From contig NC_086097.1 of NCBI RefSeq assembly GCF_963921235.1, positions 152,212,001-152,276,000 on the forward strand: 64,000 nucleotides of DNA, in the 5' to 3' direction. This DNA comes from Mobula hypostoma (taxonomy: Eukaryota). Every line of letters begins with the position of its first letter. Within the stretch, counting starts at the first letter, position 1. The notes below the pieces were generated by a model. The model ran no database searches and was not told the DNA's origin. It worked only from the letters and a program-made list of their open reading frames with translations. The position numbers were made by a program, and so were the translations under genes. Shown here one piece after another: positions 21,700 through 64,000 of the stretch.

Positions 21700-22330
21700 T
21701 CCAAATGGGATTTGGACCAAAGATGATCGACTCTTCACCTGTTCACGCAGTTTCGCTAAAACTGCCAACTCTCTGGATGCTGCGACCACGCGTGTGGTTT
21801 GACCAAGTAGAAGCCCAGTTCTAGATTCGGCAGATATCTTCGGATTCCACACATTACTATTACGTGGTGAGCTCCCTTGACCAGGAGACAGCCGCACGGG
21901 TTGTTGATTTCATACAGTCACCCCCCGAAGAAGGCAAATATGCAGCGTTCAAAGCGCTGCTCATAGAGACCTTTGGCCTCTCCTGCTGTGAATGGGCCGT
22001 GCGGTTACTGCATATGGATGGCCTGGGCGACCGCGCACCATCAGCCCTGATGAGCGACATGCTAACACTGGCAGACGGCCATAAGCCTTGCCTGCTGTTT
22101 GAACAGATTTTCTTGGAGCAAATGCCAGAAGACATCCACCTCCTGCTAGCAGATGAAGACTTCAGAGACCCGCACGGATATGCTTTGGCGCGCCAAACAG
22201 ATTGGCGGAACCACCATCAGAATTAGTGCTGTGGCACGGCCGAAAGCCCAGCCCTCCCGCACCCCAGCAGTGGAGCACCGCCGTGATAGCCTCCTCTACA
22301 TTTGGGACAAGCTCTCCAGGTGAAGATTCC
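21700..22330 (+). pseudogene. gag: Gypsy gag remnant
   Basis: VVSSLDQETAARVVDFIQSPP..KYAAFKALLIETFGLS..LGDRAPSALM..IFLEQMP. Frameshifted; no zinc-finger region found. Confidence 0.75.
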
Positions 22331-25230
22331 TGGTGGACACGGGGGCGGAAATCAGTGTTGTACACCCCTCGAGCCACGATACCCGAACTAGAAGAACAGG
22401 ACCAGAACTTACGGCAGCCAACAGCAGCATCATCCGCACCTATGGCACAAGAACCATCCCCTTGCAGTTCGGTTCCAGCCACTTTACATGGACATTTACG
22501 CTGGCCGCAGTGTCACAGCCATTGCGAGGTGCAGACTTCCTCCGTCTGCACTGCCTGCTCGTGGATTTGAAGGGACGACGATTGGTCGATGATTGGTCCC
22601 TCGGTGAGGCCAGGTTACCGGCCCCGCACCTGGACTCCATCACTTATTCCGACAACGAGTTCGCCAGAGTGCTATCAGAGTTCCCATCTATCATCATGCC
22701 GCAGTTTTCTTCAACAAACCCCAAGCACGGCATGATGCACCACATCCCCACACAGGGACCTCCCCTTCATGCCCGGGCCCGCAGGCTACCACCCGACAAG
22801 CTCCGCCTCGCGAAGGAGGAATTCAAGATGGAGGAGATGGGGATTGTGCAGCGTTCCGACAGCCCATGGGCCTCCCCACTTCATATGGTGCCCAAGTCCA
22901 CTGGAGGGTGGAGACCGTGTGGCAACTATCGGAGGCCGAACGATGCCACCACATCCGATCGCTATCCGGTACCACACATCCAGGACTTTATGGCCAACCT
23001 GCACGGGGCGCGCATCTTTTCGAAGATTGACCTGGTCCGAAGGTATCATCAGATCCCAGTCCACCTGGATGATGTACCCAAGACGGCCCTCATTACCCCC
23101 TTTGGCCTGTTCGAGTTCCTCAGGATGCCATTTGGGCTCAAAAACACAGTGCAGACTTTCCAGCGCTTGATGGACGCAGTAGGGCGAGGTCTGGACTTTC
23201 TGTTCATCTGCCTGGATGACATACTTATCGCCAGCCTCTCCCGCCAGGAACATCTAGCACATCTACACCTGCTCTGCCGCCGCCTAAGCGACTATGGCCT
23301 GGCTATCAACCCCGCCAAGTGCCAGTTCAGCCTATCCGCCACCGATTTCTTGGGACACCGGATCGACCGCCATGGAGCTGTTCCTCTGCTGGCCAAAGTT
23401 GAGGCCATCCACCAATTTGCCAGGCCCAACACCGTTAAAGGCCTGCAGGAACTTGTTGGGATGGTTAACTTTTATCACCATTTCCTACCCTCGGCAGCCC
23501 GGATCATGCGGCCCCTTTTTGGCTTGATGTCCGGCAAGGTCAAAGAGGTCACATGGACAGAGGAGGCGACGGCAGCTTTCGAACAAGCCAAGAACACGCT
23601 AGCAAATGCCACACTCCTAGTCCACCCCAGGTCGACGTCCCAACTGCCCTCACTGTGGATGCCTCCGATGCGGCAGAGTACAGCGCTCTTGACAGGGAGC
23701 TGCTGGCCATGTACCTTGCCATCTGGCACTTCAGGTATTTCCTGGAGGGGAGAGAGTTCACGGTCTGCACAGACCACAAGCTCCTCACTTTCGCATTTGC
23801 CAAAATGTCGGACCTGTGGTCAAGCCGCCAACAACGCCATCTGTCGTACATCTCGGAGTTTACCACCATGATCAAGCTCTTCTCCGGGAAGAACAACATA
23901 GTGGCAGACGCGCTGTCCTGACCCTCCGTCCAATCAGTGTACTCTCTGTCTCCGGGGGTGGATTATGCGACGTTAGCTGAGGCGCAACAGCTGAGGCGCA
24001 ACAGCTGGACGGAGAGATGCCGGCGTACTGAACCACAGTCTCAGGACTCCGCCTCGAAGACATACCCATTGGGCCCAAAGGTAAGTGGCTCCTTTGCGAT
24101 GTGTCCACCAGGCAACCTCGGCCCATTATCCCGACTGCTTGGAGGCGCCGCGTTTTTGACACCTTGCACGGTTTAGCCCACCCTTCCATCAGGGCGACCA
24201 TCCGGCTGATCGCAGACAGGTTTGTGTGGCACGGCCTATGCAAGCAGGTCGAGCACTGGGCCAGGACATGCACGCACCGTCAAACATCCAAAATCCAGAG
24301 GCACGTGAGGGCCCCACTGCAACCCTTCCAGCCGACACATAGGTTTGAACGTCCACGTAGACATCATCGGCCCGCTGCCGGTTTCGAGAGGAGCGAGATA
24401 TCTGTTCACCATGGTGGACAGGTTCACGAGGCGGCCGGAAGCTGTCCCACTCGCTGACACGGCCGCGGAGACATGCGCCAGAGCCCTGATTACCACCTGG
24501 GTGGCACGATTCGGACTCCCAGCCCACGTCACTTCAGACAGAGGTGTACAGTTCACATCAGCTTTGTGGTCTGCACTGGCACAACTCCTCGGAACCCAGC
24601 TCCACCGGGCGACTGCTTACCACCCGCAGTCTAACGGCCTGGTGGAATGTTTCCACAGGCACTTGAAGTCGTCCCTGATGGCACGCCTCTGAGGGCCAGA
24701 CTAGGTGGACGAACTCCCCTGGGTGCTGCTTGATATCCACACGGCACCCAAGGAGGACCTGGCCGCATCATCGGCCGAACTGGTTCACGGTGCCCGCTCA
24801 CAGTTCCCGGTGAGTTTGTGCCAGCACCCCGTGGCCCGGAGGACACATCTGCTGGGGTCCTAACTAAACTCCAGGAGCGGCTTGGAACACTTGCTCCAGT
24901 CCCGACATCCTACCACGGAACAACATCCTCTTTCGTGCCCAGGGACCTACAATAGAACAAGTATGTTTTCATTCGCCAAGGCGCGCACAGACCACCCCTG
25001 CAGCGACCATACGAGGGACCCTACAAGGTGGTGCGCCATAATGGAGCGACCTGCGTTCTCGACATCGGTGGTCGGGACGAGACTTTTAGCATTGACTGTC
25101 TCAAACCGGTGCATCTGGATCTTGAACGCCCGGTTGCGGTACCACCCCGACGACGTCGAGGCCGACCACCTAAAAGAACTGAGAATGTGCAGGCTGTGGA
25201 CTCTGCACCTCCTATCGCCGGATCTGGAGG
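22330..25230 (+). pseudogene. pol: Gypsy pol (PR-RT-RH-IN), disrupted
   Basis: PR FLVDTGAEISV; RT RMPFGLKN and CLDD (YLDD mutated); RH VDASD..DRELLA..TDHK with an internal deletion; IN HGLAHP, VHVDIIGPLP, TSDRG, NGLVE. Confidence 0.9.
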
Positions 25231-28400: not shown

Positions 28401-28529
28401 CTTCTCTTTCCTCAAAGCCTCTCTATATGTTAGACACAAGGAATTCTGCAGATGCTGGAAATTCAAGCAACACACATCAAAGTTGCTGGTGAACACAGCA
28501 GGCCAGGTAGCATCTATAGGAAGAGGTAC

Positions 28530-28565
28530 AGTCGATGTTTCAGGCCAAGACCCTTCATCAGGACT
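28530..28565 (-). ncRNA. Minimal type I hammerhead ribozyme motif (best preserved copy)
   Basis: Minus strand AGTC-CTGATGA-AGGGTCTTGGCCT-GAAA-CA-TC-GACT: helix I AGUC/GACU, both core boxes, NUH triplet AUC. Confidence 0.75.
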
Positions 28566-28999
28566 AACCGAAAGAAGAGCTAGTAGGAGACTCGAAAGAG
28601 GGAGGGGGTGATCCAAAATGATAGGAGGAGGGGGAGGGATGGAACCAAGAACTGGACAGTTGATTGGCAAATGGGATATGAGAGGATCGTGGGACAGGAG
28701 GCCCAGGGAGAAAGAAAAGGGGGAGGGGGGGAAAAACCCAGAGGATGGGCAAGGGGTATAGTGTAAGGGACAGAGGGAGAAAAAAGGAGAGAGAAGAAAA
28801 GAATGTGTGTATATAAATAAATAATGGATGGTGTACGAGGGGGAGGTGGGAGATCCTGTCCCATGATCCTCTCATATCCCTTTTGCCAATCAACTGTCCC
28901 GCTCTTGGTTCCATCCCTCCCCCTCCTGTCTCTCCTATCATTTTGGATCTGCCCCTCCCCCTCCCACTTTCAAATCTCTTACTAGCTCTTCTTTCAGTT

Positions 29000-29030
29000 A
29001 GTCCTGACGAAGGGTCTCGGCCCAAAACGT
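29000..29030 (+). ncRNA. Hammerhead motif, degenerate and truncated near the cleavage site
   Basis: AGTC-CTGACGA-AGGGTCTCGGCCC-AAAA-CGT; GAAA changed to AAAA, consistent with CpG decay. Confidence 0.6.
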
Positions 29031-29110
29031 GGGCCTATATGTTAGATCTGGCTTTACTCCATGCACTTCTTTCACTGCTCTATCGCTCTGGGTCCCATCC
29101 CCCTTGCAAA

Positions 29111-29120
29111 TTAGTTTAAA
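29111..29120 (-). promoter_or_regulatory. Candidate -1 frameshift slippery site at the CR1 ORF1/ORF2 junction
   Basis: GGT TTA AAC TAA in the ORF1 frame; ORF2 is in the -1 frame. Confidence 0.55.
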
Positions 29121-29244
29121 CCCTCCTGAACCATGCTAGCAAACTTACCTGCAAGGATATTGCTCCCCCTCGAGTTCAGGTGCAACCCATCCAATCTGTA
29201 CAGGTCCTACCTTCCCCAGAAGAGATCCCAATGGTCCAATGATT

Positions 29245-37782: not shown

Positions 37783-38643
37783 TGTTACGTACCCCGTAAC
37801 TGGGTTGCCAAACCAGCAGAAATGGATCACTCAGTTGGAGTCTGGAGTACTAGAACTAAGAAAGTTTTATTAAAGAAACAAGCAACACAGTAATCGAAAG
37901 GATAATAAATGCAACAGTTCAGCGATGATAAACACACATGTGCACAGAAGTAAGATAACAGCATCAATCAAGCTCTATCGTTGTCTAGGGGTAAAAGACC
38001 AATTTCAAAATGACTCAAAGTTCAGTCCAGTTAGTAGTTCAGTTCGCAGTAATCATTGCCATGGCGATGGACAACGTGGGGGAAGAGAGAGATAGAACAG
38101 GAACAACTGATCATTCAGAACACTGCTTCACTCACAGACCAGCGAGATGGCTCACAAACAGCTTTTGGGCGGGTCCTTGGTGATGTCACCTGAGGTCACC
38201 GACTGTGACTCCTCCTCCAGATGCGGTCAATCCTCTGCAGTGAACCCGGCACCCAGGCAAGGGCGGACACACACCGGGTTCCCGCTGATCGTACCTTTCC
38301 ACCCTGATCGTTGTCCGATACTTCTCACCCACTCGTGAGAAGCGCACCGCTTCCAGGGTCTCGTTACCTCGGGTGGCGTGTGTGCCTGTCTTAGCGAACC
38401 TGTCCCTTTTTATCCCCCTGCTGGGGTATCGCCTGTCCGTCACTTCAAACAGTTCAGGGTTCAAAGGGGGGAGCCGCTCCAGACAGCTCTTCCTCCCACA
38501 TCCCTTCATTACACATCTCCAGACGCTGCTCCATTGTTCCTTATCTCTCCTTCCCCTGAGGGCAGGTGGCAGACCAACTGCTGATGTCACTGATGCTAGC
38601 CCAGGCCAGCAAACATCTTAATTTTATGTGTATTCTCGTAACA
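37783..38643 (-). repeat. 3' LTR of the Gmr1-like element
   Basis: Near-identical to 41741-42602. Minus-strand TATA-like GATAAAAAG near 38410 and AATAAA near 37868. Confidence 0.95.
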
Positions 38644-38923
38644 CTTCCCCCCTTTAAGGATTTTTACCGAGAGGTAAAAATTACAAACATGACTACATTA
38701 TTTGATACATACACAATATACATCTTTATCAACCATTTGGCTAACACAGCGAGTTTGAAGCTGTCAACACCTTGACAGACAGTCATCACATTTTCTGTTC
38801 CTTTTACACGTGTTATTAATAATCCCTTAGACCAGGCTCCAACTCAGCAAACTTCATAGTGGCCAAAAACACTGATGAATTGCGACCAATGTAACCTCTC
38901 ATTTGGTTTTGTCCCGGACCACA

Positions 38924-40291
38924 CTAACAAGGGTCGTCCCATTCCGACTCAGTTTTCTCTCGCAAGGGCTTAGTAGGAGGGGGACGGGTATTGACCGCAG
39001 AGTTATTGCAAAACTTCCTGCAGTACCCCATCATCTCCAAAAGCCTTCTGAGGGCCCTCTTGTCTGTCGGGGTTGGGAGGTCAGCGATAGCCTGCACTGT
39101 AGCTTGCATCGCTGCCAGCTGCCCCTGTGTCACTACAATTTCCAGGTAAGTGACCCTCGTGTGGCCGAATTCATTTTTTTCAAGGTTCACTATCAAGCTG
39201 GCTTCAGACAGCCGTATTAAATTGCCAATACACACCTCTGTGGTCATCAGCTCTTTAGTCACTGAATTACTCAATATATATGAGTGTTCTTTACTGGGCT
39301 GCCCTATTGTAACAGACATAACCCAACGTCCCAGTTCTTTGCATTTCCTCGGGACAATCAAACACATAGGTGCGAGTCGTTTAATTACTCCTTCTAAAGA
39401 TTCGCTTTGTTCGGGGATTAAGGGAGAGACCTTATCAGTAGACCTGGCCAAAACAATAGCCTTCTCCCATCTGACCGATCCCATCCTAATCTTTTCAAAA
39501 TGGTTCTTTTCTCTTATCAGGGGGCCCCTAGCTTCATTGATTTCCACGCTAACACCGACTAGGTTTGTTAGCATATCAAAAGCCGGTGACCGTCTCAGTT
39601 CGCGTCGGTCATGATCAATAACATTTTTCCCCCTGGGCAGCCGGTAAATCTCTTTCATGATTCCACCAACTGTTTCCTCCAGCACCGCAAAATGTCCACC
39701 GGGGGGTACCTCGTGGGCCATGTTAAAAACCTCATCCCCATAACTCTTTTGCACCACCCCCCACTCCTCATCTGCGGATGCTGTACTTGATTTCCCTTTC
39801 TTCCTTAGCACCTCCTCATCCGCACAATAGCTTGTCAAGGCTGTGTCAGAGAGAGCGGTCTCGGCAAAAACCATCAGCCCCTCGTCTCGCTCCTGCGTCT
39901 GCACAAATTCTTTCCTGGCTACTGCTACGTCCGTCCCAGCTCCCTCACTACCTCTTATCTCACTACACCCTGTCTCATACAAGGTTGGCAGAAATGTTTC
40001 AGCCAAATTCACCATCGCGGGCGGGGCCTCCATGCTGGCAGGCTGACCCGTCAATCTCACGACTGGGAACACGATTCCTCCGGCGATGTCATTATCGAGC
40101 AAGACTTCCACGTCTTTCATCGGTAATTCGGGCCTCACCCCGATCGTGAATAGTCCAGAGACCAGGTTGCTCTGTAAATGTATCCGGTGCAAAGGGACTG
40201 ACTCTGTCCCTTCCCCAACACCTTTGACCTCTACCTCCCCAGTCTGGGTCTCTGAGCTAAACTCTACTACACTCTTCAGTCTTAGTGACTG
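38924..40291 (-). pseudogene. pol: Compacted pol remnant (PR C-term, IN HHCC start, RT thumb)
   Basis: MAHEVPPGGHF (IN), then LIVNLEKNEFGHTRVTYL..QAIADLPTPTDKRALRRLL..GYCRKF (RT). Same frame as gag. Confidence 0.75.
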
Positions 40292-41641
40292 TCACGCTCC
40301 CGTGTCTCTCCAGATCCGCACTGGAACTGGTTTTAACCCCTCCTTCACTGACACCAGTCCGGCCGAGATAAACCTCTCGCGCCCTTCCTGGACTTTTTCA
40401 GACCTGTCCTTCCCTAGCGGTTCGCTTAACAGCTCGATACAGCCATTCAAAATTTCCGCTTTTCCTTTCCCCGTCTCCTTCCTTGGGGCAAAGCACCTGG
40501 ACGCAAAGTGTCCGACTTTCCCACAATTATAACAGACGACCCCAGGAGACTTCCTACCAGACTGCTCCCGGTCTACCTTATCCTTTTCACTAGTCCCCGG
40601 CTTACTTTCTGACTTTTCCGGCGGACTCTCCCCTCCGTCCTGACTACCCTTCTGGTAGCCTTTACTCGGGGCAAACTTCATTTTATGCGTCAACGCATAC
40701 TCATCCGCTAACTTAGCAGTTGCGGCTAACGTGGCTGCCTCTTTCTCATCGAGGTAGGGTCTCATACCCTCAGGGACACAACCTTTAAACTGCTCAATCA
40801 GAATCAGCTGCAGCAGTCTGTCGTAATCCCCCTCTACCCCTTTCGAGGCGCACCAACGCTCACAATATGTTTGCATCTCACGAGCAAACTCCAAATACGT
40901 GCGGTCCCACTGCTTCCTCGCATTCCGGAACCTCTGCCGGTATGCCTCCGGGACCAACTCATAAATCCTGAGGATGGCCTCCTTCACCACCTCATACTTC
41001 TGGGCATCTTCCGCGGATAAAGCGGAGTAAGCTTGTTGGGCCTTCCCTTTCAGTACACTCTGAAGTAACACAGCCCACTTATCCCTCGGCCATTCCTGAC
41101 TTATAGCCACCTTTTCGAAGTGGAGAAAGTACCGATCCACGTCGGTATCGTCAAAAGGGGGAACCAGCCTTACCTCCTGGGTCGCCCGGAACCCTCCACC
41201 TTGGTTCGGCACGAGCCCCTGCTCGGCCCTTATCTTTAACTTCTCCAGCTCAAATTCTCTTTCCCTCTGTTTCTCCTCTCTCTCCAACTGTCTGTCCCTC
41301 TCTTGCCTTTCTACCTCTTTCTCTCTCTCCCGCCTTTCTAACTCTCTCTCTTCGTGTTCTAACTGCCGTACCCGGAACTCGTGCTCGAGTCTCAGTTTTT
41401 CAAGCTGTACCTGTACCGCGTCTCCAGCAGGTTTTTCAATAGACACCATCCCCAGCTCACCTTGGGGAAACACACCTTTAGATACATAGTGCTCTACAAT
41501 AGCTCTGTGTATCTCCTCTCTCCTCATTGTCGACTTCACCTTAGCAAGATTCACCCGTTTGGCCACAGCTATCAATTCCGATTTCCTGGCATCCTCTAAT
41601 GCCTCCAAGGTCGGCGCCTTTATAAATTCCTCAACCTCCAT
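40292..41641 (-). CDS. gag: Gag of the Gmr1-like element (coiled coil, SCAN-like capsid CTD, CCHC knuckle) running into protease DTG
   Basis: 449-aa open frame: VPEAYRQRFR..QLILIEQF, CYNCGKVGHFASRC, IWRDTGA*. Confidence 0.88.
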   Translation of the reverse strand: MEVEEFIKAPTLEALEDARKSELIAVAKRVNLAKVKSTMRREEIHRAIVEHYVSKGVFPQGELGMVSIEKPAGDAVQVQLEKLRLEHEFRVRQLEHEERELERREREKEVERQERDRQLEREEKQREREFELEKLKIRAEQGLVPNQGGGFRATQEVRLVPPFDDTDVDRYFLHFEKVAISQEWPRDKWAVLLQSVLKGKAQQAYSALSAEDAQKYEVVKEAILRIYELVPEAYRQRFRNARKQWDRTYLEFAREMQTYCERWCASKGVEGDYDRLLQLILIEQFKGCVPEGMRPYLDEKEAATLAATAKLADEYALTHKMKFAPSKGYQKGSQDGGESPPEKSESKPGTSEKDKVDREQSGRKSPGVVCYNCGKVGHFASRCFAPRKETGKGKAEILNGCIELLSEPLGKDRSEKVQEGRERFISAGLVSVKEGLKPVPVRIWRDTGA

Positions 41642-41717
41642 TTCTGCTGTTTGTCTTTTCTTTCTTTCGGGAATTTTAACCCAATCAATTTACTCCGTCC
41701 CAAATTTAGCGTTCAAA

Positions 41718-41736
41718 ATCCCGGACGAGAACCCCA
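41718..41736 (-). promoter_or_regulatory. Primer-binding site, tRNA-Pro-like
   Basis: Minus TGGGGTTCTCGTCCGGGAT versus canonical TGGGGGCTCGTCCGGGAT. Confidence 0.8.
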
Positions 41737-41740
41737 CTTA

Positions 41741-42602
41741 TGTTACGTACCCCGTAACTGGGTTGCCAAACCAGCAGAAATGGATCACTCAGTTGGAGTC
41801 TGGAGTACTAGAACTAAGAAAGTTTTATTAAAGAAACAAGCAACACAGTAATCGAAAGGATAATAAATGCAACAGTTCAGTGATGATAAACACACATGTG
41901 CACAGAAGTAAGATAACAGCATCAATCAAGCTCTATCGTTGTCTAGGGGTAAAAGACCAATTTCAAAATGACTCAAAGTTCAGTCCAGTTAGTAGTTCAG
42001 TTCGCAGTAATCGTTGCCATGGCGATGGACAAGGTGGGGGAAGAGAGACAGAGAGAACAGGAACAACTGATCATTCAGAACACTGCTTCACTCACAGACC
42101 AGCGAGATGGCTCACAAACAGCTTTTGGGCGGGTCCTTGGTGATGTCACCTGAGGTCACCGACTGTGACCCCTCCTCCAGATGCGGTCGATCCTCTGCAG
42201 TGAACCCGGCACCCAGGCAAGGGCGGACACACACCGGGTTCCCGCTGATCGTACCTTTCCACCCTGATCGTTGTCTGGTACTTCTCACCCACTCGTGAGA
42301 GGCGTACCGCTTCCAGGGTCTCGTTACCTCGGGTGGCGTGTGTCCTGCCTTAGCGAACCGGTGCCTTTTTATCCCCCTGCTGGGGTATCGCCTGTCCGTC
42401 ACTTCAAACAGTTCAAGGTTCAAAGAGGGGAGCCGCTCCAGACAGCTCTTCCTCCCACATCCCTTCATTACACATCTCCAGACGCTGCTCCATTGTTCCT
42501 TATCTCTCCTTCCCCTGAGGGCAGGTGGCAGACCAACTGCTGATGTCACTGATGCTAACCCAGGCCAGCAAACATCTTAATTTTATGTGTATTCTCGTAA
42601 CA
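41741..42602 (-). repeat. 5' LTR of the Gmr1-like element
   Basis: Adjacent to the PBS; direct repeat of 37783-38643. Confidence 0.95.
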
Positions 42603-50253: not shown

Positions 50254-50263
50254 TTAGTTTAAA
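50254..50263 (-). promoter_or_regulatory. Candidate -1 frameshift slippery site at the CR1 ORF1/ORF2 junction
   Basis: GGT TTA AAC TAA. Confidence 0.5.
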
Positions 50264-51188
50264 CCCTTCCAAACAGCTCTATTAAACCTGCCTGCTAGGA
50301 TATTGGACCCCTTTAGTTCAGATGTAACCCATCCTTTTTGTACAGGTCGTACCCCCACCAGAAGAGGCTCCAATGATCCAGGAACCCGAAGCCCTGCCCC
50401 GTACACCAGTCTCTCAGCCACGCATTAAAATGCCTGATCATGCTATTCTTGTGCTCTTTAGCACGTGGCACAGGCAGCAATCCTGAGATTATTACCCTGG
50501 AGGTCCTGCTTTTCAGCTTCCTGCCCAATTCCCTGAATTCTCTCTTTCGGACCTCCTCCCTTATTCTACCTATGTCATTGGTACCAACATGTACCAAGAC
50601 TTCTGGCTGTTCACCCTCTCCCTTCAGAATACTCTGCACCCTATCCGAGACACCCTGTACCCTGGCACCTGGGAGGCAACACACCATGTGGGTATCTCTA
50701 TCAGGCTGACAGAACCTCCTGTCTATTCCCCTCACTATGGAACCCCCTATGACTACGGCATTCCTCATCCTCTTCTCTCCCTTCTGCACCATGGAACCGA
50801 GCTCAGTGTCAGAGTTCCGATCGCCATGGTCATCCTCTGTCAGGAAACCCCCCTCAACAGCATCTAAAATGAGATAACAATTACTGAGGGTGATGGCCAC
50901 AGGGGTGCTCTCTACTATCTGAGCTCTTCGCTTCCCTTCCTTGACAATCACCCACTTATCCAACTCCTGCAGCCTCAGGGTGACTAACTCCTTGTCGCCC
51001 CTATCTATCTCCTTAACACTTTCCCTAATAAGCTGTAGGTCATCAAGCCCCATCTCCAGATCCCTAACACTGTCTCTCAGGAGCTGCATCTCAGTGCACC
51101 TGACGCAGATATGGCCATCTGGGAGACTCGAAGAATTCCAGGATTCCCACATCTGACACCCAGAGCAAAATACTAACCCTACAGACGT
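50254..51188 (-). pseudogene. CR1 ORF1p: CxxC..CxxC zinc finger, coiled coil, SGNH esterase-like domain
   Basis: CSGC..ICVRC, VVIGGSIV, CLPGA, HVGTND, DGLH. The likely start at 51188 is ACG instead of ATG, and a 1-nt lesion near the end gives a premature stop. Confidence 0.85.
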
Positions 51189-51393
51189 TCTCTATTCCTC
51201 AAAAAAAAGTCCACTTACCTCGCTGAAGCCCGAATGAGCCAAAGCCCTACCACTCTGCCTCAGACCACTCCGTCGATGACCACTCCTTTTACGACTGCTT
51301 TGCTTGGCAGTTGCTCCCTTTTACGCCCGAACCTTCCCTGCTCTCCAACTTATGATTGATGCTCTGGTTATAGCCAAGTTCCCACAAAGCTTT

Positions 51394-54323
51394 CCATAAA
51401 ACCATAGAAACTACAGCACAGAAACAGGCCTTTTGGCCCTTCTTGGCTGTGCCAAACCATTTTCTGCCTAGTCCCACTGACCTACATACGGACCATATCC
51501 CCCCATACACCTCCCATCCATGTATCTGTCCAATTTATTCTTAAATGTTAAAAAAGAACCCGCATTTACTTCCTCGTCTGGCAGCTCATTCCATACTCCC
51601 ACCACTCTCTGTGTGAAGAAGCCCCCTTTAATGTTCCCTTTAAACTTTCCCCCCCCTCACCCTTAACCCATGTCCTCTGGTTTTTCTCTCCCCTTGCCTC
51701 AGTGGAAAAAGCCTGCTTGCATTCACTCTATCTATACCCATCATAATTTTATATACCTCTATCAAACCTCCCCTCATTTTTCTACGCTCCAGGGAATAAA
51801 GTCCTAACTTATTCAACCTTTCTCTGTAACTGAGTTTCTCAAGTCCCGGAAACATCCTTGTAAACCTTCTCTGCACTCTTTCAACCTTATTTATATCCTT
51901 CCTGTAATTTGGTGACCAAAACTGAACACAATACTCCAGATTCGGCCTCACCAATGCCTTATACAACCTCATCATAACATTCCAGCTCTTATACCCAATA
52001 CTTCGGTTAATAAAGGCCAATGTACCAAAAGCTCTCTTTATGACCCTATCTACCTGTGACGCCACTTTTAGGGAATTTTGTATCTGTATTCCCAGATCCC
52101 TCTGTTCCACTGCACTCCTCAGTGCCTTACCATTAACCCTGTATGTTCTACCTTGGTTTGTCCTTCCAACATGCAATACCTCACACTTGTCTGCATTAAA
52201 CTCCATCTGCCATTTTTCAGCCCATTTTTCCAGCTGGTCCAAGTCCCTCTGCAGGCTCTGAAAACCTTCCTCGCTGTCTACTACACCTCCAATCTTTGTA
52301 TCATCAGCAAATTTGCTGATCCAATTTACCACATTATCATCCAGATCATTGATATAGATGACAAATAACAATGGACCCAGCACTGATCCCTGTGGCACAC
52401 CACTAGTCACAGGCCTCCACTCGGAGAAGCAATTCTCTACTACCACTCTTTGGCTTCTTCCATTGAGCCAATGTCTGATCCAATTTACCACCTCTCCATG
52501 TATACCTAGCGACTGAATTTTCCTAACTAACCTCCCATGCTGGACCTTGTCAAAGGCCATGTAGTCCATGTAGAAAATATCCACTGCCTTCCCTTCATCC
52601 ACTTTCCTGGTAACCTCCTCGAAAAACTCCAATAGATTGGTCAAACATGACCTGCCACGCACAAAGCCATGTTGACTCTCCCTAATAAGTACCTGTCTAT
52701 CCAAATGTTTGTAGATTCCGTCTCTTAGTACTCCCTCCAATAACTTACCTACTACCGACGTTAAATTTACCGGCCTATAATTTCCCGGATTACTTTTCGA
52801 TCCTTTTTCAAACAACGAAACAACATGAGCCACTCTCCAATCCTCCGGCACCTCACCTGTAGACAGCGACATTTTAAATATTTTTGCCAGGGCCCCTGTA
52901 ATTTCAACACCAGTCTCCTTCAAGGTCCGAGGGAACACCCTGTCAGGTCTCGGGGATTTATCCACTTTAATTTTCCTCAAGACAGCAAGGACCTCCTCCT
53001 TTTCGATCTGTACAGTTTCCATGATCTCACTACTTGTTTCCCCTAATTCCATAGACTTCATGCCAGTTTCCTTAGTAAATACAGACACAAAAAAACTATT
53101 TAAGATCTCCCTCATTTCCTTTGGTTCCGCACATAGGCGACCACTCTGATCTTCAAGAGGACCAATTTTATCCCTTACAATCCTTTTGCTCTTAATATAC
53201 CTGTAAAAGCTCTTTGGATTATCCTTCACTTTGCCAATGCAACCTCATGTCTTCTTTTAGCACTCCTGATTTCTTTCTTAAGTATTTTCTTGCACTTCTT
53301 ATACTCCTCAAGCACCTTATTTACTCCCTGCTTCCTATATATGTCATACAACTCCCTCTTCTTCTTTATCAGAGTTGCAATATCCCTTGAGAACCAAGGT
53401 TCCTTATTCCTATTCACTTTGCCTTTAATCCTGACAGGAGCATACAAATTCTGCACTCTCAAAATTTCTCCTTTGAAGGCTTCCCACCTACTAATCACAT
53501 CCTTGCCTGAGAACAACCTGCTCCAATCCATGCTTTTTAGATCCTTTCTCATTTCTTCAAATTTGGCCTTCTTCCAGTTAAGAACCTCAACCCTAGGACC
53601 AGATCTATCCTTGTCCATGATCAAGTTGAAACTAATGGTATTATGATCACTGGAACCAAAGTGCTCCCCTACACAGACTTCCGTCACTTGTCCTAACTCG
53701 TTTCCTAACAGGAGATCCAATATTGCATCCCCTCTAGTTGGTCCCTCTATATATTGATCTAGAAAACTTTCCTGAACACATTTTACAAACTCTAAACCAT
53801 CTAGACCCCTAACAGTATGGGAGTCCCAATCAATATATGGAAAATTAAAATCCCCTACCACCACAACTTTATGTTTCCTGCAGTTGCCTGCTATCTCTCT
53901 GCAGATTTGCTCTTCCAAGTCTCGTTGACTATTGGGTGGTCTGTAATACAATCCCACTAATGTGGCCATACCTTTCCTGTTTCTCAGCTCCACCCATAAG
54001 GACTCAGTGGACATGCCCTCTAATCTGTCCTGCCTGAGCACTGCTGTAATATTTTCCCTAACAAGCAATGCTACTCCCCCATCTTTCATTCCTCTGCCTC
54101 GATCACATCTGAAACATCGGAACCCTGGAATATTAAGCTGACAGTCCTGCCCCTCCTGTAGCCAAGTTTCACTAATTGCTATAATGTCATAATTCCACGT
54201 GTCAATGCACGCCCTCAACTCATCCGCCTTCCCCGCAATACTCCTAGCATTGAAATATATACACCTCAGAAGATTTTTACCACCACTCACAACCTTTCTA
54301 TCAGCGGATTTGCTTGAACTTTC
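51394..54323 (-). mobile_element. Young CR1 LINE, near-intact ORF2 (one frameshift near 53228)
   Basis: 354-aa APE ORF (YFNARSI, ISETW, GDFN, SDH) and 529-aa RT ORF (QHGF, GVPQGSVLGP, KFADDTK). Tail at 51394. Confidence 0.95.
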
Positions 54324-54979
54324 TTTCCTCTTTTAAACTTCGCTCTTGGACCTGTGCACCACCTCCTCTCTCGTAGCTCTCCAACTCATGATTGGTGCTC
54401 CGGTTATCTTGACTGGAAGTTGATTCCATTTATTATGTTGTAAAGGGTTTTATTGAGAAAAGTAGACTGTCATGAAAAAATTTCATATAAGTTTGAGACT
54501 AAAATCAGTGGTAGTGAATTGCCAGTGGCAGGGAAGTATTAGGAACAAAAAAGTCCTGAAGGACAGGATTATTCCACACTTGGAAATAAAGGTAGAAATT
54601 GATTAGACATTTTGTGATCCAGTCTGACAAGTTTGATTTAATCTTTTGATAATGGCAGTGAGGTTGGTCTGGCAATTGTCTTGCCTGAGACTGCAAGAAG
54701 TTGCAAAGAGTTGTGATCACAACCCAATTCATCATGTAAATTAGTCTACTTTCTATTGATTCCATCTACCACTTCATCAGGAAACGAGCTAAAACAATAA
54801 AAGACCTCTTCCACCATAGGGCAGAAGATATAAAACGCTGCGAGCATGTACCATCAGACTCAAGGACAGCTCTCATCCTGCTATTATCCGATTCTAGAAT
54901 GATTCTCCGTGAGCTGAAAGATGGAGTCTTAATCTTCTAAACTAATCTGCTGTGCTCTTTGCACTTTATTTGCATATAT

Positions 54980-62375: not shown

Positions 62376-64000
62376 TCACCTGAACTCAAAAGGTACTAAT
62401 ATCCTGGCGGGATTGTTTAATATAGCTGTTAGGGAGGGTTTAAACTAAGTTGGCAGGGGGAAGGAAACCAGGGTGTTAGGGTCGAGGAAGAGGAAAATAG
62501 AAATAAGTCAAAAATACTATGCAGCAAAGATGGCAAGAAGGACAGGCCGGTGAATATACAGGATAATTTGCTGCAAAATAGGAATATAGCAAAATCGGCA
62601 ACAGATACTGATCTAAATGTACTGTACTTAAATGCACGCAGCATTAGAAATAAAGTGGATGACCTTGCTGCACAGCTACAGGTTAAAAGATATGACATTG
62701 TGGCCATCAGTGAGTCATGGCTAAATGATGGATGTGATTGGGAGCTGAATATCCAAGGATACACAGTGTAGAGGAAAGATAGGGAGGTAGGTAAAGGGGG
62801 TGGCGTGGCCCTGATGGTAAGTAACAATATCAAATCAATAGAAAGAAGGGACATAGGATCAGAAGAGGTAGAATCCTTATGGGTCGAATTAAGAAATGGC
62901 AAGAGTGAAAAGATACTAATAGCAGTTATATACAGGCCTCCAAACCACAGCCAGGATGTGGACTACAACTTGCAGCTGGACATAGAAAAAGCGTGTCAGA
63001 AGGAAAATGTCAAGATAATTATGGGGGATTTTAATATGCAAGTGGATTGGGAAAGTCAGGAAGGTTATAGATCTCAGGAGAGGGAGTTTGTAGAATGCCT
63101 ACAGGATGGCTTTTTAGAGCAGCTTGTCCAGAAGCCCACCAGTGGACCGGCTGTTTTGGATTGGGTGTTGTGTAACGAACCTGAAGCGATTAGGGAGCTG
63201 GAGGTAAAGGAACCCCTTGGAAGTAGTGATCATAATATGATTGAGTTCAGTTTCAAATTTGAAAAGGAGAAGCCGGTATCAGGTGTATCGATATTTCAGT
63301 GGAACAGGGGAAATTAGTGGTACGAGAGGGGAACTGGCCCAAATCGATTGGAAAAGTAAGCTAAATGGAGGGACGGCAGAGCAGAATTGGATGAAATTCC
63401 TACAAGAAATAAGGAAAATGCAGGAAAAATATATTCCAAGAAAAAAGAAAATCATGAATGGAAAAATGGCACAAATGTGGCTAACGAGAGAGGTTATGGC
63501 AAAAAGAAAAGGAACGGCGTACAAGGAAGCAAAAATTAGTGGGAAAAATGAGGACTGGAAGACTTTTAAAAACTTACAGAAGGAAACTAAGAAAGTCATT
63601 AGGAAAGAAAAGATGAATTATGAAAGGAAGTTGGTGATTAACATAAAAAAGGATATTAAGAGCTTTTTTTAAATATATGAAGAGTAAAAGAGTAACAAGG
63701 GTAGATATGGGACCGATTTAAAATGATGCTGGAGAAATTATAATGGATAACAAAGAGATGGCGGAGGAACTGAATGAGTATTTTGCATCAGTCTTCACAG
63801 TGGAAGACATGAGCAATATACCTGATAGCCAGAGGTATCAGGGAGTAGAATTAGGTGCAGTCAAGATTACTAGAGAGAAAGTGCTTGGGAAACTAAGTGG
63901 ACAAAGAATAGATAAGTCTCCCGGTCCGGATGAGGTGCACCCAAGGGTTCTGAAGGAGGTGGCTTTGGAGATTGTGGAAGCATCGGAAATGATCTTCCAG
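62376..64000 (+). mobile_element. CR1 LINE (ORF1 3' end, APE, linker); continues beyond the window
   Basis: HLNSKGTNILAG..REGLN*, LYLNARSI, ISESW, GDFNM, SDH, DKSPGPD. Confidence 0.92.
62439..62448 (+). promoter_or_regulatory. Candidate -1 frameshift slippery site at the CR1 ORF1/ORF2 junction
   Basis: GGT TTA AAC TAA; the -1 frame is open and AUG-free up to LYLNARS. Confidence 0.55.

Follow-up and report, generated by a model that had tools for sequence, protein, structure and literature searches.

A slippery heptamer conserved at the ORF1-ORF2 junction of vertebrate CR1 LINEs suggests programmed -1 frameshifting

The heptamer U_UUA_AAC is placed among the most shift-prone on mammalian ribosomes in the sections available to us of a 2016 review (PMC5009743). 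At the coronavirus ORF1a/1b junction the site is followed by a pseudoknot, a 0-frame stop lies close (five codons on in SARS-CoV-2) and the polymerase is encoded in the -1 frame; according to the accessible part of one study, a nearby 0-frame stop raises SARS-CoV-2 frameshifting (PMC8168617). The PRRSV nsp2 -2/-1 site has an unstructured two-patch C motif after a 10-nt spacer, which binds PCBP and nsp1beta and drives frameshifting, as described in the part of the report that we could consult (PMC4937337). How LINEs translate ORF2 is called an open question in the available portions of reviews. The Dictyostelium elements TRE5-A and TRE3-A are APE-type LINEs said to need a -1 frameshift for ORF2 in the figure legend of a review (PMC5911963), so frameshifting as such has a precedent among LINEs; these elements belong to another clade, carry another ORF1 and are not from vertebrates. 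SART1 and mammalian L1 also express ORF2 from a bicistronic LINE RNA. Going by the excerpts at hand, they use reinitiation or unconventional initiation and make a separate ORF2 protein, whereas CR1 has a -1 overlap at a frozen heptamer and mostly no AUG in the genome studied here, one CR1 subfamily having the SART1-type UAAUG.

CR1 is the dominant retrotransposon in most vertebrates, as stated in the excerpts of the literature available to us. Vertebrate CR1 subgroup 7, with a type IVB ORF1, combines an SGNH esterase ORF1, an APE endonuclease and a reverse transcriptase, as we find here, and the accessible sections of the two papers that describe it make no mention of a frameshift at the junction (PMC4120745, PMC13343379). 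There is likewise no statement on CR1 frameshifting in the available text of PMC5009743, PMC11835228 (first 300,000 characters), PMC3894237, PMC4255032, PMC4316615 or PMC3905857. Judged by titles and the starts of abstracts, the papers listed in our searches include none on CR1 frameshifting; the classic CR1 literature (Haas 1997 and 2001, Kajikawa 1997, Kapitonov and Jurka 2003, Kojima 2005), Repbase entries or supplements may carry an earlier remark on the overlap.

The window, a stretch of 64,000 nucleotides from Mobula hypostoma, contains a CR1 junction with the coronavirus heptamer in the same phase and with the endonuclease in the -1 frame. The features of this junction, and two further CR1 junctions in the window, are as follows.

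62377..62448, + strand: end of a CR1 ORF1, truncated at the 5' side, with the last 23 codons and the stop; C-terminal end of an SGNH esterase, closing in Leu-Asn-stop
62439..62445, + strand: slippery heptamer U_UUA_AAC in X_XXY_YYZ phase with ORF1, based on the sequence and on silent-site conservation
62446..62448, + strand: ORF1 stop codon TAA, adjoining the heptamer
62456..62464, + strand: G-rich block GGGGG-AA-GG, beginning 10 nt past the heptamer; candidate stimulator with no predicted fold
62439..62630, + strand: -1 frame linker of 64 codons, charged, with no Met and no stop, up to endonuclease motif I
62631..63317, + strand: ORF2 APE endonuclease domain, with the motif I Asn at 62631
50254..50265, - strand: second CR1 junction with the same heptamer and stop; linker frameshifted, most of ORF1 upstream at 50313-51191
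29111..29122, - strand: third CR1 junction, of another subfamily; a ~600-base insertion interrupts the linker

The stretch 62377-62448 (+) translates as HLNSKGTNILAGLFNIAVREGLN* and closes with GAG GGT TTA AAC TAA (62434-62448); similarity between this copy and a sister copy begins at 62377. An earlier note on this DNA had placed T TTA AAC in slippery phase directly before the ORF1 stop and had read the -1 frame into the endonuclease without a stop or a Met. The sequence confirms both, the -1 frame running FKLSWQGEG...YLNARS. Tandem slippage would produce Gly-Leu-Asn followed by Leu-Ser-Trp-Gln, with the F and K codons not decoded. The ORF2 of the window copy and that of the sister copy match Pfam PF03372 and PF14529. 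The window ORF2 has a premature TAG at 62769-62771 (codon 111) and its first in-frame ATG at 62814, and continues in decayed form past 63317 toward the window end. Because only the last 23 ORF1 codons are kept and a TAG falls at ORF2 codon 111, this copy is dead, and the question of the slip site therefore concerns the family and not this copy.

The 12-mer GGTTTAAACTAA occurs three times in the window, at 62437-62448 (+), 50254-50265 (-) and 29111-29122 (-), where the earlier note had also seen it. Shuffled windows contain it 0.48 times on average (up to one mismatch), and three occurrences are reached in 1 of 100 shuffles. Both other junction copies are broken, one by the linker frameshift and one by the insertion. 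The longer ORF1 of the copy at 50265 matches Pfam PF13472 (SGNH esterase). The reverse transcriptase domain PF00078 is found only on another LINE copy in the window, at 51643-53244. That copy (51640-54332, -) has long open endonuclease and reverse transcriptase frames, with the frame start within the linker, and no ORF1 junction was seen upstream of it. The domains of a CR1 with an esterase ORF1 are thus present: SGNH esterase in ORF1, APE endonuclease and reverse transcriptase in ORF2, the last on that other copy. The junction belongs to an esterase-type CR1 LINE, and is assigned to CR1 over L2 from the domain layout, likeness to turtle and bird proteins and background knowledge.

The sequence GGGTTTAAACTAA has 10,919 matches in the own genome against 185 for the reversed control, and TTTAAACTAR-N7-GGGG-N3-GG, which spans the heptamer, the stop and the G block, has 22,511 against 9 for its control; these counts are evidence of a large family, not of selection. 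As a motif-independent anchor we used the upstream HLN..G.NIL codons (12,651 matches) and analysed 90 of the first 100 listed. The exact heptamer is present in 70 of these 90 loci and the best match falls at one offset in 80, while the two preceding bases vary. Two more diverged subfamilies were added through a protein search (30 loci each), together with 57 metagenome-contig loci, those reaching the junction being mostly bird-like by their likeness to named bird proteins. Copies were found by ORF1 protein similarity with the last four residues of the query removed. The 208 sequences examined gave 169 with a match at the ORF1 end and 152 that were kept; 135 could be registered on an in-frame stop (TAA in 85, TAG in 47, TGA in 3), and 17 had no in-frame stop and were left out. 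We compared 23 lineages: eight own-genome groups, represented by their commonest codon, and 15 single copies from other vertebrates.

The exact heptamer occurs in 94 of the 135 stop-registered copies. Across the lineages, Leu is encoded by TTA in 22/22 and Asn by AAC in 19/19, and a T comes before the Leu codon in 22/23; the one departure (L125) had been registered on a stop further upstream and does have the heptamer. At 12 control columns with a conserved amino acid, one codon is kept in 39-81% of lineages. ORF1-wide, TTA makes up 0.12 of Leu codons, AAC 0.37 of Asn codons and T 0.26 of third positions. The amino acid before the Leu varies (A, G, T, S, D, H, C). The last ORF1 codon is not Asn in three single copies, which we read as decay. 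In a tree the lineages are related, the bird-like ones closely, so TTA in 22/22 does not represent 22 independent trials, and the result is a comparison with controls and not a probability. Within these limits, the heptamer is kept at synonymous positions beyond the control codons, without variation across the deep lineages, as expected if the earlier idea of a slip site is right.

Two possible counter-examples were considered and rejected. Junctions with a first base other than T give 1,010 matches, a number not directly comparable with 22,511 since the pattern is differently bounded; the 100 listed come from many different subfamilies and have the look of decay. The sequence C CTG AAT TAA has 79 matches, and 0 of the 20 loci examined have an ORF1 end or an endonuclease frame there, so these loci are an unrelated repeat.

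The Leu-Asn end is widespread among ORF1 proteins. A first search found 91 homologues, with 65 ending in LN or IN (one IN), and a profile search found 94 new ones, with 82 ending in LN. Named sources of these homologues include sharks, rays, turtles, frogs, lizards, a snake, an alligator, birds and bony fish, and rays, skates and sharks supply the nearest named ORF1 proteins. The residue before the Leu is K, E, Q, M or W, which have no codon ending in U, in 1/65 and 2/82 of these proteins; one place earlier such residues occur in 30/65, and the background is 20%. This bias fits a fixed U, with DNA behind it for the 23 lineages only. Scans of viral and prokaryote contigs found no relative. Two proteins labelled as SGNH hydrolases of Pseudomonas aeruginosa and Klebsiella pneumoniae (P0021, P0147) are CR1 ORF1-like with an LN end, and are probably vertebrate contamination of bacterial assemblies.

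In a set of 110 junctions with motif I in reach, selected on the heptamer and so informative on frame only, the motif lies in the -1 frame in 87, and that frame is open in 68. The open junctions have 18 different linker lengths (35-110 codons); of the two remaining frames, one is open over the same stretch in a single junction of the 68 and the other in none. Among the 23 out-of-frame copies, three are open in their own frame. In most lineages the -1 frame is shut 1-8 codons upstream of the site, without an ATG, and ORF2 therefore cannot start well before the heptamer. The exceptions are one own-genome lineage and several bird-like copies, open for 17-50 codons upstream.

For the window subfamily we took the 30 loci nearest to the window copy, which are 29 distinct copies with the window's own included. 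Motif I is at codon 65 in 26/30 loci, a Met precedes it in 1/26, and the first ORF2 Met is codon 126 in 21/30. The Pfam PF03372 match starts at residue 65, so a start at that first AUG would lose ~60 residues of the domain. The lost residues presumably include catalytic ones, as we take those of motifs I and II to be. Searches of PDB sequences gave no match.

Some subfamilies appear to be mosaics of different ORF1 and ORF2 parts. In one, linker residues 24-86 match residues 6-68 of the UAAUG-bearing subfamily (51/63) and the ORF1 ends are 65% alike; the linker is in the -1 frame, and six of seven open copies have no Met. We read this as a probable ORF1 swap, in an inferred direction, that came with a slip site of its own and for which the AUG was not required. 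Mosaic linkers are also seen in L056 against L210, L052 against L001 and L303 against L039, where one ORF2 start is joined to several kinds of ORF1 end and keeps the -1 frame in each case. For L056, the likeness sets in at the G block of its partner, which suggests an ORF1 swap by recombination at that point. As a point against a fused product, we found among 20 longer hits no active family with esterase, endonuclease and reverse transcriptase in one frame, those examined being gene models. One ray gene model (P0032) continues from ORF1 without a break into the FKL linker and motif I of the endonuclease, and is probably a single copy with a one-base indel.

We predict that the conserved U_UUA_AAC is a programmed -1 frameshift site that gives an ORF1-ORF2 fusion, and consider this likely; the fusion proposed in the earlier note is supported by these sequence-level tests. 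A fraction of ribosomes would slip back one base on the heptamer that adjoins the ORF1 stop, as the Leu and Asn tRNAs move in tandem from UUA AAC to UUU AAA. The adjacent stop and the G block may impose a pause, most likely through a bound protein and not a fold. Shifted ribosomes would resume at CUA, pass the linker and go on through the endonuclease and reverse transcriptase. The product would be an ORF1-linker-endonuclease-reverse transcriptase fusion in the manner of Gag-Pol, made at a low fixed ratio to the ORF1 product, and the charged linker may serve as a flexible tether. To our knowledge CR1, unlike coronaviruses, has no protease to process the fusion, and we know of no LINE protease that would free ORF2, which speaks against a fusion.

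A slippery heptamer without a stimulator may give little shifting. In CR1 a G run starts 10 nt past the heptamer and is followed by a second G patch, both conserved across lineages, so that the G-rich block noted earlier as common to the copies is borne out well beyond the window. The -1 codon that closes at the first G stands for any of five amino acids (Gln, Lys, Leu, Arg, Met), and still its last base is G in 22/22 lineages. The following -1 codon is GGG in 20/22 lineages and the second Gly is GGG in 15/16, while GGG accounts for 0.23 of Gly codons in the endonuclease and 0.49 of those elsewhere in the linker. The block is weaker in the window subfamily, with A at the first position in 28/30 loci. 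The earlier impression that no strong structure lies downstream also stands: the folds have a mean z of -0.3 for 45 nt (23 copies) and +0.1 for 80 nt (22 copies), no helix common to the 23 folded natural copies is visible by eye, and there is no conserved stem-loop or pseudoknot in single-strand folds of at most 80 nt by a program that does not model pseudoknots. Rfam has no match at the junction at E up to 1. We rejected a G-quadruplex as the general stimulator because a two-tier pattern occurs in only 8/23 copies; quadruplex stimulation was known only from synthetic constructs according to the consulted sections of the 2016 review (PMC5009743).

The PRRSV site is alike in its two patches, lack of structure and spacer, the 10 nt found in CR1 falling within 9-11 nt. 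CR1 differs in being G-rich and not C-rich, in having another heptamer and in that its stimulator-binding protein is only putative. We treat the parallel as a lead, drawn by analogy. With coronaviruses the difference is that CR1 has no predicted pseudoknot and that its stop adjoins the heptamer.

Termination-reinitiation would account for ORF2 in another way. Ribosomes that terminate at the end of ORF1 would begin anew in the -1 frame, at an AUG or near-cognate codon a few nucleotides further, so that ORF2 becomes a protein of its own; the heptamer and G block would be coupling signals. Reinitiation is documented for SART1 and favoured for L1 in the available parts of PMC3894237, PMC10275272 and PMC5009743. 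In CR1, an in-frame AUG lies 2, 5 or 8 nt past the stop in 9/22 lineages (own-genome 1/8, others 8/14), two of the nine with a UAAUG stop-start. The UAAUG is fixed in one own-genome subfamily, with Met at codon 4 in 16/16 in-frame copies. Most lineages that lack a nearby AUG have a near-cognate codon there, and an open linker is equally expected. Given these AUGs at 2-8 nt, the earlier description of ORF2 as AUG-less is too wide for the family; it holds for the window subfamily, where no AUG precedes motif I in 25/26 loci. Reinitiation does not readily fit this subfamily, in which the 20 nt past the stop contain no AUG or near-cognate codon in frame. Nor is a start codon conserved in position or identity, and the AUG is missing in 7/8 own-genome lineages. 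A TURBS-like UGGGA was rejected, being fixed only downstream of the stop, in 5/23 copies, and scattered at varying places or absent upstream; the downstream structure that SART1 needs is absent. Reinitiation also leaves unexplained why exactly a slippery heptamer is frozen at its silent sites. Since the nearby AUGs occur in 9/22 lineages, reinitiation, alone or beside frameshifting, keeps some probability, but we consider it unlikely. Lineages with a nearby AUG may use both routes. One own-genome subfamily (L208-L237) has the heptamer with an overlapping UAAUG, and its -1 frame is also open for ~50 codons upstream; it is a natural test case for frameshifting against reinitiation.

A slip at or after termination seems quite improbable to us. 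While the stop occupies the A site, the Asn tRNA would slip -1 on A_AAC, either before release, giving the same fusion with the stop as the pause, or after it, with ORF2 beginning at the CUA Leu without a Met. Post-termination sliding of ribosomes is known. The stop directly follows the heptamer in every lineage, the next -1 codon is CTA in 20/22 and there is no conserved fold, all of which would suit such a slip. The first U and the UUA are as fixed as the AAC, however, and tandem slippage needs both whereas slippage of a single tRNA needs them less.

It is very improbable that the motif has no translational role, as a DNA or RNA binding site, splice signal or protein constraint with ORF2 made from a spliced or internally started transcript: two gene-prediction models from a named bird (P0110, P0111) splice into the FKL frame and the Leu-Asn, at the close of the last esterase helix, could have a structural part, but selection on the protein cannot hold silent sites fixed, nothing would require a mere binding site to sit in codon phase at the very point where the -1 frame opens, TAA and TAG both occur, and there is no fixed splice acceptor because the dinucleotide before the heptamer varies (GG, AC, AG, GA, GC, CA, TG, TC). 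Contigs of four runs aligned to a sister copy have no GT..AG joint among the 15 listed of 83, and are uninformative on splicing or expression.

The signal is real and deeply conserved in the sequences compared; frameshifting at U_UUA_AAC would put an established mechanism to use in a new setting, with a candidate stimulator that is atypical. A frozen slippery site would explain how the ORF2 enzyme is produced where there is no usable start codon, and it offers a precise and cheap test of CR1 ORF2 translation. If the prediction is true, the CR1 enzyme is an esterase-endonuclease-reverse transcriptase fusion, and CR1 ORF annotation changes because AUG-based calls cut into the endonuclease. The design of CR1 retrotransposition assays would change as well, and ORF1 swaps between families must keep the frame. 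The G-rich block could represent a natural stimulator of a new type.

More tentatively, and as a proposal that we hold to be possible but doubtful, the trait may be ancient: CR1, the dominant LINE of non-mammalian vertebrates, would have made its fusion by -1 frameshifting since before the shark/bird split, using a structure-free signal composed of the heptamer, the adjacent stop and a G-rich protein-binding block after a 10-nt spacer. If so, the CR1 signal would be a cellular, G-rich counterpart of the protein-switched PRRSV frameshift, and could act as a retrotransposition switch controlled by the host or by ORF1p.

The window contains other repeats. The ~600-base insertion inside the linker of the third CR1 copy (~28430-29035) is SINE-like, and sequence similar to it flanks the CCTGAATTAAAA repeats. 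Broken ORFs at 21825-24700 (+) have protease, reverse transcriptase and integrase-like motifs in their translations and appear to be a Gypsy-type LTR element. At 38186-42576 (-), a gag-like ORF of 465 aa with a CCHC knuckle (40292-41689) is followed by another ORF (38924-40291), and the pair is flanked by near-identical, LTR-looking sequences at 38186-38617 and 42112-42576.
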